Below are positions 1 to 57,231 of a stretch of DNA of 64,000 nucleotides, in pieces. The number at the start of each line of letters is the position of its first letter. Within the stretch, counting starts at the first letter, position 1. Where the stretch lies: NCBI GenBank assembly GCA_002412545.1, contig DHVG01000002.1:241872-305871 (forward strand). The letters are read 5' to 3'. The position numbers were made by a program, and so were the translations under genes. Source of the stretch: Elusimicrobia bacterium UBA5214. Its GTDB lineage: Bacteria; Elusimicrobiota; UBA5214. Below the pieces are notes generated by a model. That model was not told the DNA's origin. It saw only the letters and a program-made list of their open reading frames with translations, and searched no databases.

Positions 1-1244
1 GGGATAAAGTTCTTGTCCAGTTATTTGAAGGGACTACCGGATTAAATACTACCGAAAGCCGGGTACGTTTTTTAGGACGAGGAATTGAACTGCCGGTATC
101 TGCGGATATGCTCGGCAGAATTTTTGACGGACTGGGACGGCCGATTGATAAAGGCCCGGCAATTATCCCGGAAAAGAAACTGGATATTAACGGCAGCCCG
201 ATAAATCCCTACTCGCGCGATTTTCCTGAAGAGTTTATTCAAACTGGTGTTTCGGCAATTGACGGGATGAACACTTTAGTCCGTGGACAGAAATTACCGA
301 TTATGTCCGGCAGTGGTTTACCCCATAACCTTCTTGCGGCACAGATTGCTCGGCAAGCAAAAGTTTTGGGTAAAGAAGAGAAGTTTGCTGTCGTCTTCGC
401 CGCTATGGGTATAACTTTTGAAGAAGCAAATTTTTTCATTTCCGATTTCCGGCGTACTGGTGCAATTGAACGCACTGTCCTTTTTATTAATCTCGCTGAT
501 GACCCGGCAATTGAACGCATCTCTACCCCGCGGATGGCACTTACCTGTGCCGAATATTTCGCTTTTGAAAAAGATATGCATGTCTTAGTGATTCTTACCG
601 ATATGACCAACTACTGCGATGCTTTAAGAGAAATTTCGGCAGCGAGAAAAGAAGTGCCTGGACGAAGGGGTTATCCCGGATATATGTATACTGATTTAGC
701 GACCAATTACGAACGTGCCGGAAGAATCAAAGGCAAGAAAGGTTCAATTACCCAAATTCCGATTTTAACCATGCCCGAAGACGATAAAACCCACCCGATT
801 CCCGACTTGACCGGCTACATTACTGAAGGACAACTGATTCTTTCCCGCGAACTGCATCGCCAGGGCATCTATCCGCCGATTGATGTTCTACCTTCGCTTT
901 CCCGGTTGAAACAGAAAGGTATCGGTCCGGAAAGAACACGCGATGACCATGCTAATATTAGCAGTCAACTTTTTGCCGCTTATGCTCGTGGTCGTGATTT
1001 GAAAGAGTTAGCCCTCATTCTCGGTGAAGCAGCACTTTCTGAAACCGATAAAATGTTTATTAAATTTGCTGACCAATATGAGAATAAATTCGTCCAGCAG
1101 GGTGAAAACGAAAACCGGAGCATTGAGGAGACACTGGATTTAGGTTGGAATCTTTTGACCTTACTCCCGAAAACCGAACTCAAACGGGTCAAAGAAGAAG
1201 AAATAGAAAAATATCTTCCGAAAGAAATTAAGTCCGAATTATGA
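1..1244 (+). CDS. atpB: V-type (A/V) ATP synthase subunit B, 5' end outside the window
   Basis: The frame is open from nt 3 ([35 protein letters not shown] precedes the first Met at 108). The body matches V/A-ATPase B blocks ([67 protein letters not shown]). Confidence 0.93.
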
Positions 1245-1300
1245 ATGATGAATTATGAATCAAAATCATAACTCATACTTCATAACTCATAATTCATAAT
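1241..1300. repeat. Heptamer dyad array (ATGAATN x3, then TAANTCA x5) between atpB and atpD
   Basis: Period-7 words read directly. ATGAATTATGA is complementary to TCATAATTCAT in the second half. Confidence 0.8.
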
Positions 1301-1315
1301 TTGAGCGGAGCGTAT

Positions 1316-1936
1316 ATGCGTTTAGCCGTTGGTTCTACCCGGATGGAATTGTTGAAACTGAAAAGACGGATTGCCATTGCCCGCCGGGGACATCGTCTGC
1401 TTAAAGATAAACAGGATGAATTAGTCCGCCGATTCCTTCCTTTGATTGAGCAAGTGGTAAACCTGCGTAAAGAAGTTGAAGAAAAAATTGAACAAGCACA
1501 AAAAAGTTTTTTTCTCGCCCGGGCACTGATGCCCGAAGAAAACCTTGGTGAAGCGCTGAACTCTTCCCAGATGAAGACAAAAATTAATCTCCTTTATACC
1601 CAACTGCTTAATTTGCGCGTACCGAAAGTGTCAGTAGAATTTACCGGCAGTCCGCATACTTACGGGATGGTTTACACTTCCGCTGAACTTGACCTTGCCT
1701 TAATGCGTTACCATGAAGTTTTACCTTTAATGCTTGAACTTGCCGCTTTAGAAAAAACCGTAGAACTGCTCGCTTTAGAAATTGAAAAAACCCGACGCCG
1801 GGTTAATGCTTTAGAATACACCCTTATCCCCAACCTGTTGGAGACAATCAAATATATCACCGCAAAACTTACCGAGACCGAACGCGATAATCTTACCCGT
1901 CTGATGAAAATAAAAGAAATCGTGAGAGCACATTGA
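1316..1936 (+). CDS. atpD: V-type ATP synthase subunit D
   Basis: MRLAVGSTRMELLKLKRRIAIARRGHRLLKDKQDELVRRF is the canonical subunit D N-terminus, and there is an RRRVNALE block near the C-terminus. The gene directly follows subunit B. ATG 1316 is preferred over the TTG 1301 of the ORF track. Confidence 0.9.
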   Translation: MRLAVGSTRMELLKLKRRIAIARRGHRLLKDKQDELVRRFLPLIEQVVNLRKEVEEKIEQAQKSFFLARALMPEENLGEALNSSQMKTKINLLYTQLLNLRVPKVSVEFTGSPHTYGMVYTSAELDLALMRYHEVLPLMLELAALEKTVELLALEIEKTRRRVNALEYTLIPNLLETIKYITAKLTETERDNLTRLMKIKEIVRAH

Positions 1937-1943
1937 TAAAATC

Positions 1944-2012
1944 GGTGATTGGGTGATTGGGTTATTAGGTTATTGGGTCAATGAGTGGTTAAGTGGATAT
2001 GTGGTTAGGTAG
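1944..2012. repeat. Octamer array (GGTGATTG/GGTTATTG/AGTGGTTA words)
   Basis: Nine consecutive 8-nt degenerate words after the atpD stop. Confidence 0.75.
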
Positions 2013-2108
2013 AGGAAATTGCTGGGGAGAAACAGCAATGAAGTTGTTCAAAAACATCTTTGATTACCGCTGAAACAATTGGTAAAAATGTAGGAACATA
2101 CTAAAACC

Positions 2109-55507: not shown

Positions 55508-55722
55508 TCTCGGAACCTTTTTCTTGCTCAGTAATTCTTTGAAAAGAAAGAGAAGAGAGTTTCGGGAATCCTTTCTTCACTCTATGATTTTTTGACCAGA
55601 AACAGGAAGCGCTCGCCTTGCTTCGTTCGGCGAAGCGGGTCAAAAACTCTGATGTCGTTCAGAAATGTCCCCGAAACTCTAAATGATGAGTGAATGCTTG
55701 AAAATAATCACTCTACTAACCC
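55501..55722. repeat. About 220-bp nested imperfect palindrome between the HAD-like gene and purB
   Basis: Arm pairs: GGGTTAGT / ACTAACCC; AGAGTTTCGGG (55556-55566) / CCCGAAACTCT (55670-55680); TTTTTGACC / GGTCAAAAA. Central hairpin CTTCG-TTCGG-CGAAG. Confidence 0.7.
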
Positions 55723-55784
55723 AAGTTGTAAGGAGAACAGAGATGAATATGGTTGTCTACAGTTAACCTAAAAGGAGAGAAAGA

Positions 55785-57074
55785 ATGATTGAGAGATACA
55801 GTTTATCCGAGATGAAGAAGATTTGGTCAGAAGAAAATAAATTTAGCAAAATGCTGGAAGTAGAACTTGCGGTGTGTGAGGGATTAATGCATCTGAGAAT
55901 TATTCCAAAAAACGATTATGCGAAAATTATAAAAGGAGCAAGACTTAACCTGAAACGAGTAAAAGAAATTGAAAAGATTACCAAGCATGACCTTGCGGCT
56001 TTTGTTGACCAAATCAGCGAGAATTTAGGTAAGGAGGCACGCTGGATACATTATGGATTAACTTCCTCCGATGTATTGGACACAGTGACTGCCTTACAAC
56101 TAAAAGAATCTTCTCTTTTACTGATAAAAAAATTAAATAAATTTGCTCAGACATTAAAGAACCTTGCACTTAAATACAAGAATACAGTTATGCTCGGACG
56201 GACTCATGGAATCCAGGCAGAACCAATCACTTTTGGTTGGAAACTTCTTACTTTTTACAGTGAAATAAAACGGCATCTGCAGATGCTGGGGTCAGTAAAA
56301 GAAGTTGTCAGGTATGGTAAAATTTCCTGTGCGGTAGGGACTTATGCTCATCTTGACCCGAAAGTGGAAGAACAGGTAATGAAAAAAATTGGACTAAGAA
56401 ACGAGCCGGTATCTACCCAGATTATTCCCCGCGACCGGTATGCAGTATATCTCTCTTCTTTAGCGATAATTGCCTCTTCATTAGAAAAATTTGCTACCGA
56501 AATCAGGAACTTGCAAAGAAGCGAAATTGCCGAAGTAGAGGAATATTTTTCAGCCGGGCAGAAAGGTTCTTCGGCAATGCCGCATAAACGAAATCCGATT
56601 CTTTCCGAGAATCTTTGCGGGTTAGCCCGCCTGATGCGTTCTTACTGCTTGGTTGGTTTAGAAAACATTCCGCTCTGGCATGAACGCGATATTTCGCATT
56701 CTTCCGCTGAACGGATTGTTTTACCTGATGCGAGTATCCTTTTAGATTTTATGCTCACCCGGATTGAAAACATTTTTAAAAATCTTGTGGTCTATCCAGA
56801 AAATATGCAAAAAAATTTAGAGAAATCATATCGCACCTATTTTTCACAAAAAATACTTTTGAAACTGATTGAGAAAGGTCTTAAACGGGACGATGTTTAT
56901 CGGATTGTGCAGGAATTAGCTCATCAGGCGTTAGAAGAGAAAAAAGATTTTGTTTCTTTAGTAGAAGAAGATAAAGAAATAAAAAGATATCTTACCGGGA
57001 AAGAAATTAAAGAATGTCTGGAGGAAAAATCTTTTCTGAAGAATATTGACCAGATATTTGCAAGATTTAGATAA
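55785..57074 (+). CDS. purB: Adenylosuccinate lyase
   Basis: MIERYS N-terminus, fumarate-lyase signature GSSAMPHKRNP, strong RBS. Confidence 0.95.
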   Translation: MIERYSLSEMKKIWSEENKFSKMLEVELAVCEGLMHLRIIPKNDYAKIIKGARLNLKRVKEIEKITKHDLAAFVDQISENLGKEARWIHYGLTSSDVLDTVTALQLKESSLLLIKKLNKFAQTLKNLALKYKNTVMLGRTHGIQAEPITFGWKLLTFYSEIKRHLQMLGSVKEVVRYGKISCAVGTYAHLDPKVEEQVMKKIGLRNEPVSTQIIPRDRYAVYLSSLAIIASSLEKFATEIRNLQRSEIAEVEEYFSAGQKGSSAMPHKRNPILSENLCGLARLMRSYCLVGLENIPLWHERDISHSSAERIVLPDASILLDFMLTRIENIFKNLVVYPENMQKNLEKSYRTYFSQKILLKLIEKGLKRDDVYRIVQELAHQALEEKKDFVSLVEEDKEIKRYLTGKEIKECLEEKSFLKNIDQIFARFR

Positions 57075-57087
57075 GAAAGTTTTTTGC

Positions 57088-57217
57088 TCTTAGCCAATAG
57101 CCAATGGCTGAAGGCTGATGGCTGTTTCTTAATATTTGCCCGCTTTAAGTAAGAAAGCCTTTAGCTTTTAGCCAATAGCCAATGACTCAGGCTAACGGCT
57201 AATTGCTGATGGCTGTT
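57088..57217. repeat. Two AGCCAATAGCCAATGGCTGAAGGCTGATGGCT-type heptamer dyad arrays between purB and purA
   Basis: AGCCAAT x2 followed by GGCTNNN x3, present twice (57088-57125 and 57157-57217). Confidence 0.8.
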
Positions 57218-57231
57218 GATGAGGAGGAGAA

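Follow-up and report, generated by a model that had tools for sequence, protein, structure and literature searches.

Hairpins with heptamer-repeat arms in the operon spacers of an Elusimicrobia-like genome: probable dispersed elements, one family apparently linked to a PF05635 gene

Introduction

How do the spacers of a long bacterial operon come to consist of short words repeated in tandem, followed by a similar run of their approximate reverse complements? The question is raised by a 64,000-nucleotide stretch of contig DHVG01000002.1, deposited as Elusimicrobia bacterium UBA5214 (hereafter the window, with coordinates counted from its first nucleotide), in which a model that read the letters alone had drawn attention to arrays of this kind and to the long bulged hairpins that they could form. 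We find that the arrays are real, that several of the word families appear to represent whole dispersed elements, and that one family is the reduced form of an element carrying a gene of the Pfam family PF05635. We think it moderately probable that the spacers and a few linkers within genes that tolerate insertion have been colonised by several families of selfish hairpin elements, akin to repetitive extragenic palindromic (REP) sequences, miniature inverted-repeat transposable elements (MITEs), and the intervening sequences (IVSs) of 23S rRNA genes, and that these elements have been remodelled by slippage and are transcribed as part of operon mRNAs.

Results

The arrays are real and most frequent in the Mrp/Nuo operons

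Short-word repeats were found at all 19 of the sites listed in the sequence-only reading, by Tandem Repeats Finder (TRF) at most of them and by sequence reading and folding at all. The claim that each is a word run followed by its complement held for 16 of them (those beginning at 1241, 10935, 23126, 23431, 26313, 33690, 38121, 40297, 45988, 46583, 48218, 49941, 50461, 51684, 54387, and 57088), for which the minimum free energy (MFE) of folding lies at z scores of -3.0 to -6.0 relative to dinucleotide shuffles; the remaining three (1944, 10161, and 39145) are tandem repeats without a complementary arm. The supposed enrichment of period-7 words in intergenic DNA over shuffled sequence is likewise present: the lag-7 autocorrelation of the pooled intergenic DNA is 0.315, as compared to 0.279 +/- 0.006 for shuffles (z 6.2) and 0.269 for coding DNA, and it is at lag 7 that the pooled intergenic autocorrelation has its peak. 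Intergenic DNA makes up 10.2% of the window and holds 15 of the 23 arrays of period 7 to 9 that TRF identified (binomial p 3e-10); the period is exactly 7 in 15 of the 23. Arrays of period 7 occur at a density of 23 per 100 kb in the window, some 7-fold higher than the 3.5 per 100 kb observed in 1.29 Mb of NuoD loci of other bacteria. The feature is real and statistically solid.

The arrays are less pervasive than had been supposed. Once the gene map had been corrected for short genes (hypC, mrpF, and others), the window was found to contain 41 spacers of 30 nt or longer, among which 9 have a tandem array (tandem p <= 0.015), 17 a dyad (MFE z <= -3), and about 22 one or the other; two of the 17 significant dyads (7450-7701 and 58537-58681) are members of other element families. 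Of the 14 spacers in the Mrp/Nuo operons (26.8-52.1 kb), 10 are affected, whereas the V-ATPase operon, in the 10 kb that we examined upstream of the window, is almost free of arrays (on the other side the contig ends 4.8 kb past the window). Hence the statement that nearly every spacer is an array is true for the Mrp/Nuo operons only. The description also needs amending in three of its particulars. Seven is the commonest period in the TRF set, as a word length of 7-8 nt would have it, but the CCGTT family has a period of 9 and the GATTACAGCGATT family one of 22 nt. The location is indeed intergenic for the majority of the TRF arrays, but the same word families are also found in frame within genes. 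And the array at 23431 is not a plain spacer array; it belongs to a dyad 500 nt long, of which it forms one arm and which has a gene inside.

That short reads can mis-assemble short repeats speaks for an artefact of assembly or scaffolding. Stretches of 20.4 kb and 12.6 kb in contigs of samples 3300038308 and 3300030373, respectively, are 100% identical to the window, down to the arrays, and the identical sequence is thus present in three assemblies representing at least two samples; micro-variation of the arrays was sought between these assemblies of the same genome and none was seen. Independent assemblies of relatives hold analogous arrays, and the arrays that lie inside genes preserve the reading frame. 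Given the complete identity of the three assemblies, the arrays are not an assembly artefact, and we assign that explanation practically no probability.

Junctions between the same genes differ among close relatives

We compared the window with four relatives, L086 and L081, whose NuoD proteins are 91% and 87% identical to that of the window, and L171 and L172, whose PurA proteins are 89% and 80% identical. In relatives at 68-69% NuoD identity the nuo genes overlap or lie about 10 nt apart, which indicates that the spacers of the window are derived. At the nuoH-nuoI junction the window has a 69-nt AGCC dyad, L086 has 6 nt, and L081 has an unrelated 72-nt dyad of CGAAT words, and the flanking coding DNA keeps an identity of about 85-90% as far as the stop and start codons. 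The nuoC-nuoD junction measures 55 nt in the window, 22 nt in L086, and 128 nt in L081. No target-site duplication is visible at either junction. The purB-purA junction, finally, is 157 nt long and holds two expanded AGCC dyads in the window; in L171 it is 96 nt long and holds a single-unit seed (ATAGCCAATGGCTG), and in L172 it is 37 nt long and holds nothing.

Orthologous junctions are wholly different, then, despite the similarity of their coding flanks, and the arrays are lineage-specific in that a given junction, in relatives at 87-91% identity, holds another element or is free of them. At the same time, the element families occupy non-orthologous junctions in the window and in L081 and L171. 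These observations, together with the origin of one family from a gene-carrying element by internal deletion (see below), support the repeat-spreading process that the earlier reading had envisaged. Because individual copies are not conserved, most would be selfish or neutral and not dedicated regulators.

Several word families appear to be dispersed elements

That word families recur at separate loci proved correct, and for three of them (GATTACAGCGATT, TTGGCG, and AATTCCAAA) the homology between copies extends beyond the words. Copies of the GATTACAGCGATT family share one plan, in which a word W is followed by about 9 nt, a second W, a loop, and then the complement W', about 9 nt, and W' again; this plan is common to three copies in the window and four in L081, which are at non-orthologous junctions, and the family was also found in L171. 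The window copies lie at the hypD/hypC junction (23126-23205; alignment A2, MFE z -3.0), at 45988-46075 (alignment, MFE z -5.1), and at 48218-48340 (alignment, MFE z -6.0), the last of which contains a nested small hairpin (CCCGTT..AACGGG). One copy per genome has this same nested hairpin (CCCGTTAGAAA...TTTCTAACGGG), namely, the copy at 48218-48340 in the window and that at 9295-9422 in L081. The three copies of the TTGGCG/TTTTTGCG family align end to end over about 125 nt; they are located at 46582-46705 (full-length alignment A7 with 73% column identity, MFE z -5.2), at 49941-50055 (alignment, MFE z -4.9), and, in a divergent promoter region, at 54387-54495 (fold, alignment). The four copies of the AATTCCAAA family, considered in the next section, align along the whole of their arms of about 70 nt. 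These alignments show the word families to be dispersed elements whose homology spans their entire length.

Other arrays are simpler. Dyads of AGCC/GGCT words, recognised by folding, fill the nuoH/nuoI-gltD junction (38121-38175; MFE z -3.5), lie at the nuoC/nuoD junction (40297-40335; MFE z -4.0) and at 50461-50512 (MFE z -5.2), and occur as a pair at the purB/purA junction (57088-57218; MFE z -5.6). A CCGTT/AACGG dyad with a 9-nt period is found at 51684-51785 (TRF, fold; tandem p 0.01, MFE z -5.5), and the junction of the V-ATPase B and D genes holds (GAATTAT)x3.6 followed by (TCATAAT)x5 (1236-1301; TRF; fold MFE -16.4, tandem p 0.005, MFE z -3.0). The tandem-only arrays are an 8-mer array, (GGTGATTG)x4.4, on the plus strand at 1944-1978 (tandem p 0.005, MFE z -1.5); the heptamers (ACTAACC)x7.4 and (ACTGTCT)x3.4 at 10160-10232 (TRF; tandem p 0.005, MFE z -1.2); and an 8-mer array at the nuoD/nuoH junction, GGTAATTG in the sense direction, on the minus strand at 39147-39182 (TRF; tandem p 0.005).

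One family includes an element with a PF05635 gene

The full-length member of the AATTCCAAA family is located at the hypF/hypC junction (23431-23935, minus strand) and has arms that align with the ORF-less copies, that is, with copies lacking an open reading frame (ORF). Its heptamer-periodic arms (23431-23513 and 23829-23935) surround a conserved ORF core (23514-23828; the called ORF extends to 23918), and two of the aligned AATTCCAAA arm pieces are the sequences that border this gene on its left and right; the product of the gene matches PF05635 ("23S rRNA intervening sequence protein") in Pfam at 44.4 bits, as compared to a cut-off of 33.8. The ORF-less hairpins, all on the minus strand, are at 10925-11080 (alignment A1, fold, translation; MFE z -3.1), at the hypA/hypF junction at 26313-26445 (fold, alignment; MFE z -4.0), and at 33685-33870 (alignment, translation; MFE z -5.6). 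Read in the sense direction over 33680-33876, the third of these passes from the 5' arm into ...K H Y D L E E R T, where HYDLEERT represents the first conserved codons of the PF05635 ORF, and from there directly into the 3' arm. It is an internal-deletion derivative of the element that carries the PF05635 gene. The other two, over 10914-11106 and 26313-26457, retain shorter "(R)TFEF" remnants ("..RTFEF" in the former), which are less certain because arm words can also yield that string.

Homologues with 65-73% identity to the PF05635 protein of the window are found in ANME-1 archaea, Deltaproteobacteria, Chloroflexota, and Aminicenantia. We surveyed 80 metagenomic loci of such homologues (L089-L168), 74 of which had both flanks long enough for analysis. 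Inverted-repeat flanks (z > 4) were present in 59 of the 74, and the lag-7 autocorrelation was 0.40 in both flanks. The arms are runs of heptamers of the type (C/T)NAAAT(T/C) that run on into the first ORF codons and start again right after the stop codon, and complementarity is higher between the two arms of one element than between an arm and its counterparts in other elements (p 5e-8). None of the 20 loci tested was located in rRNA. The nearest long ORF points in the same direction as the PF05635 gene in 54 of 61 upstream and 54 of 66 downstream cases, and the hairpin is somewhat stabler on the sense than on the antisense strand (38 to 21, p 0.02) and has more G.U pairs there. Many of the homologues are on very short contigs, which, in conjunction with the level of identity across ANME-1 archaea and several bacterial phyla, suggests that the subfamily spreads horizontally as multi-copy elements that break assemblies. 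We note, too, that gene callers often add to PF05635 proteins N-terminal "NSKFQI.." extensions that are read from the arm.

What might these elements be? A possible answer, which we offer as a conjecture and hold to be doubtful, is that this PF05635 subfamily is the cargo of widespread, horizontally moving hairpin elements with heptamer-periodic arms, which always lie in the sense direction in bacterial or archaeal mRNA units and spawn ORF-less miniatures that seed the arrays of operon spacers. The IVSs of 23S rRNA would then be the special case that happened to be noticed first, and spread would perhaps proceed via the transcribed hairpin, by RNase III excision, an RNA intermediate, or both.

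Arrays are found within genes and change in place

Two in-frame heptamer arrays on the minus strand in hypF correspond to insertions relative to a solved HypF structure, one of 7 residues (25265-25298; sense ACCAATT, peptide PITNYQSPITN) and one of 5 residues (24789-24819). Another, with the peptide ITNYQLPTTNYQ, belongs to an MrpD-like subunit (32315-32350, minus strand) and lies in a C-terminal loop that is hypervariable; the orthologue in L081 carries an array there as well. In a paralogous MrpD-like subunit the same loop, which is hypervariable in all homologues, has an in-frame dyad array (34002-34068, minus strand). A perfect (CCGTTTT)x4 array (37598-37625, minus strand) occupies a linker of a gene of the nuo-like operon (36185-38116) that joins a NuoI-like 4Fe-4S domain and a GltD-type FAD/NAD(P) oxidoreductase in a fusion kept in all relatives seen. 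At the same codons of this linker the window has (AAAACGG)x4, L086 has (CAGGGAA)x5, and L081 has a decayed array, and the length of the protein is equal or within one residue in all three. Longer in-frame tandem repeats are also present in the region: a 21-nt unit repeated 3.2 times (29675-29741, peptide KSVLTDS) in an antiporter subunit and a 27-nt unit repeated 10 times (59193-59476, peptide EEKKPxPVV) in a FecR-domain protein, close to its N-terminus.

Spacer arrays, too, may be shared and yet altered. The 8-mer array between nuoD and nuoH is common to the window and L086, in which the words have drifted (TTGATTAG), and between purB and purA the one-unit seed of L171 stands against the expanded arms of the window. 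These comparisons fit a process in which arrays would change in place, with units gained and lost by strand slippage and the word turning over in concert, as has been proposed for stem P6b, built of 7-nt repeats, in the trnL intron of Nostoc (PMC4476775).

Such a process could in principle be the whole explanation. In the manner of the short tandemly repeated repetitive (STRR) sequences of cyanobacteria, palindromic or repetitive seeds would expand by slippage on both arms, nothing would move, and like words would arise by convergence. The purB-purA seed, the word turnover in orthologous arrays, and the existence of tandem-only arrays are all in keeping with pure in-place growth, as is the fact that neither a transposase nor a target-site duplication was found. 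What it does not lead one to expect is homology over the whole length of elements, including non-repetitive loops and the nested hairpin, at non-orthologous sites and in different genomes, nor the retention of ORF codons in an ORF-less copy, nor the occurrence of the PF05635 gene together with its arms as a unit in many phyla. On balance we regard growth in place, by itself, as an unlikely account.

The drift of the words also bears on a proposal of a different kind, that the arrays bind a repeat-reading protein, for instance a single-strand binder of the cold-shock or S1 type or the pentameric PF05635 protein itself, with one protomer per heptamer. The regular 7-nt unit and the linkage of the PF05635 gene to heptamer arms could be seen in this light, and MacGregor has proposed binders of the S1, Csp, and Csr families, citing crystallographic and microarray evidence for the binding of Bacillus subtilis CspB to heptamer direct repeats (PMC4679880). 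But at least seven unrelated word families are hardly to be expected of one reader protein, and the drift is fast. We judge this proposal to be very improbable.

Arrays lie within transcription units

Counts of intrinsic terminators in the window, taken as a GC-rich stem with a T-run after it, were at the level of chance (18 and 14 terminator-like sites, as compared to 18.0 and 15.7 expected), and none coincided with a dyad on the sense strand. Terminators and promoters were considered as an explanation for the arrays and set aside, neither being enriched in the window. The arrays sit within transcription units and are without terminator-like features. That they act as RNA-processing or stability elements, as was originally suggested, is a plausible inference, and by analogy with known systems the stems are probably structures that are cut by RNase III or that act as exonuclease barriers.

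Have the arrays, then, been selected as cis-acting RNA elements that tune the stability, processing, or translation of individual cistrons in long operons for membrane complexes? REP sequences in malEFG and RNase III sites are models for control at the level of the cistron. Consistent with a selected role are the concentration of dyads in the Mrp/Nuo operons, their lack of resemblance to terminators, and the sense orientation and greater number of sense-strand G.U pairs of the PF05635-type elements; the STRR hairpins of cyanobacteria have also been proposed to act in the stability of transcripts or in translational coupling (PMC2670836). Against this, no array is conserved at orthologous junctions, where close relatives have none or a different one, and distant relatives have the same operon with overlapping genes. 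In addition, the same words are inserted within coding sequences, the V-ATPase operon is almost without arrays, and the spacers of the window exhibit no sense-strand bias, for which reason we do not claim selection at the level of RNA for them. Selection for a regulatory role strikes us as improbable, more so than growth in place.

Candidates for a mobilising function

We looked for a link to the REP-associated tyrosine transposases (RAYTs) that mobilise REP sequences and rejected it: no Y1_Tnp domain was found among the window proteins scanned, and the one such gene that came to light, in L081, has other flanking repeats. This IS200-like Y1 transposase gene (15153-15638 of L081; 27.2 bits, cut-off 23) lies between nuoK and an antiporter gene and is absent from the window, as are the inverted GC-rich repeats, GTAGCCGCGGG and CCTGCGGCTAC, that flank it. 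An origin from phage was likewise rejected, in that GATTACAGCGATT and AGCC patterns and relatives of the PF05635 protein were not found in IMG/VR.

Other features of the window and its host

The window has a G+C content of about 37% and begins with genes for the B and D subunits of a V-type ATPase (108-1936). Two defence islands of low G+C content (30-32%; 2927-6035 and 13176-18416) contain PLD-nuclease, AIPR, type II methylase-endonuclease, HNH, and Fic genes. Heptamer arrays are absent from both islands, as is expected if the islands were acquired recently. The window also contains an ABC/FtsX/LolA export cluster; hypE, hypD, hypC, hypF, and hypA (19.6-26.8 kb); two long operons for Mrp-antiporter-like and Nuo-like subunits, on the minus strand (26.8-52.4 kb); and purB, purA, an acylphosphatase gene, a FecR-domain gene, and rpsA. 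No tRNA and no Rfam RNA family was matched in the window.

NuoD has no match above 59% identity in the GTDB species set, the top matches being from Firestonebacteria and Elusimicrobia, and the named relatives of PurA at 58-64% identity are nearly all Elusimicrobiota. With the caveat that the GTDB species set has no close genome, the host appears to belong to an Elusimicrobiota-related lineage.

Three other kinds of sequence are worth recording. A GC-rich, near-perfect hairpin of about 200 nt (7450-7701; MFE about -102 kcal/mol, z -7.8) contains GTCATTGCGAGGAGCGTTAGCGACGAAGCAATC and is of a repeat type unlike the heptamer arrays. A separate structured family of about 110 nt ("TTCACTC.ATAATTT ... 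GTCGTTCAGAAA"), for which no Rfam match was found, recurs in the spacers of this genome and of a relative; it is present at 55560-55690 and 58545-58650 of the window, at 8694-8838 and 11102-11223 of L081, and at 6582-6787 of L174. Finally, inverted "CGGGGTTGAC" motifs, which may be a common operator, adjoin strong TTGACA-N17-TAAAAT promoter-like sites at 54140-54215 and 59040-59075 of the window, 7949-8321 of L081, and 7103-7422 of L171.

Discussion

The colonisation by selfish hairpin elements that we favour would proceed as follows. Whole hairpin elements would be gained at new sites, one family being the ORF-less, internal-deletion form of an element with a gene for a PF05635 four-helix-bundle protein in its loop. 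Once settled, arrays would win and lose units by slipped-strand events and their words would turn over in concert, with the arms remaining complementary. The elements would be co-transcribed in operon mRNAs and would not be terminators; by analogy with IVSs, REP sequences, and STRR hairpins, their long bulged stems would be cut by RNase III or would block 3' exonucleases. Cistrons could in this way be split or stabilised at little cost, so that the elements would be tolerated, and complementarity of the arms would be kept since the hairpin would be needed either for spread or for harmless processing. Several of these steps can be seen in the comparisons themselves: the colonisation of an ancestrally compact operon, homology over whole elements at unrelated sites, an ORF-less derivative of a gene-carrying element, fast turnover that extends to the word, and location within transcription units.

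A number of findings weigh against this account. For none of the families did we find a transposase, a target-site duplication, or any other function that could mobilise it, and PF05635 is not, to our knowledge, among the known transposases. Its copy in the window has lost 6 residues as compared to the family and may be decaying. Growth in place alone could account for the AGCC, CCGTT, and tandem-only arrays. The spacers of the window show no bias toward folding of the sense strand, as judged by G.U asymmetry (17 versus 15, p 0.25). Lastly, about 100 kb of the genome was covered, and the copy numbers of the families are thus not genome-wide.

The arrays matter for several reasons. An ancestrally compact respiratory operon can be invaded at almost every junction, and even within genes, with reading frames left intact. 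A PF05635 gene in an IVS-like stem, recurring across phyla outside rRNA, offers a testable origin for some repeats and a way to approach what a very common family of small proteins does; it is this part of the work that most deserves pursuit. There is also a practical warning, in that such arrays lead to ORF calls that are too long (N-terminal "NSKFQIPNSK" extensions) and to breaks in short-read assemblies.

How do the arrays compare with systems already on record? The classical STRR words are CCCCAGT, TTGGTCA, and CAACAGT; the window contains no tandem arrays of these words, of the Coxiella word GACAGAT, or of the words of the Nostoc P6b stem, and no tandem dimers of TAACTGA. The sequence-only reading knew of no description of such hairpins, but heptamer hairpins have in fact been reported. 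In Anabaena, Nostoc, and Lyngbya, 7-bp STRR hairpins lie between the co-transcribed genes hupS and hupL, where they have been suggested to contribute to transcript stability and translational coupling (PMC2670836). The arrays described here resemble them in being degenerate 7-bp tandem units that are dispersed, mostly intergenic, capable of forming hairpins between co-transcribed genes, and variable between relatives. They differ in that the host is not a cyanobacterium, its closest named relatives being Elusimicrobiota and Firestonebacteria, and in that many of the families are complete dispersed elements with conserved non-repetitive parts, one of them derived from a gene-carrying element. 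The P6b stem of the trnL(UAA) group I intron of Nostoc is likewise built of 7-nt repeat motifs, of which units are gained or lost on one or both sides (PMC4476775). It shares with our arrays the 7-nt-motif stem, the unit-wise change in length, and the use of alternative word classes for the same structure; it is, however, a single intron locus, whereas here many loci are involved, in mRNA spacers and in coding loops, and the words are others.

For the AATTCCAAA family the closest parallel is the 23S rRNA IVS of Coxiella burnetii, in which a decaying S23p ORF lies in a stem-loop, with tandem GACAGAT heptamers in the stem just upstream, and which is excised by RNase III (PMC4990558). In both cases complementary termini enclose a PF05635 ORF in the sense orientation, heptamers of the stem lie upstream, and decaying and ORF-less forms exist. 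Unlike the IVS, our elements lie between protein-coding genes of operons and not in 23S rRNA, and several copies, ORF-less ones included, are present within 25 kb. A likeness to MITEs is confined to this family and consists in an internal-deletion copy that shares its termini with a gene-carrying parent; unlike MITEs, there is no target-site duplication at the junctions inspected (nuoH-nuoI and nuoC-nuoD), and the parent encodes a PF05635 protein only.

REP sequences, bacterial interspersed mosaic elements (BIMEs), and REPINs are mobilised by RAYT (PMC3116915). Like these, the families of the window are extragenic, palindromic, located between operon genes, able to form hairpins from inverted copies, and dispersed, as seen within the part of the genome that was covered. 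They are unlike them in that the window has no RAYT and in that the arms are arrays of tandem words and not single palindromes of 20-40 nt. The TAACTGA direct repeats of marine Beggiatoaceae, some Cyanobacteria, and Bacteroidetes, finally, are copies of one word that are intergenic and just upstream of start codons, with one inverted case (PMC4679880). They, too, are heptamers found outside the cyanobacteria, with occasional in-frame copies in ORFs in a translatable orientation and with close relatives in which those junctions have no repeats; here, in contrast, there are many words, mostly in dyads.

A text search of the open-access literature, which cannot prove absence, found neither the phenomenon in an Elusimicrobia-like lineage, nor such a density of arrays within one operon, nor the origin of a heptamer-hairpin family in a PF05635-bearing, IVS-like element that is itself widespread outside rRNA. 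The biology of heptamer repeats has so far been mostly that of filamentous cyanobacteria, Beggiatoaceae, and a few Bacteroidetes, and it now extends to an uncultured Elusimicrobia-like lineage. The feature belongs with the STRR, REP, MITE, and IVS-like hairpin repeats, and what is new is its host and a link to PF05635 that can be put to the test.

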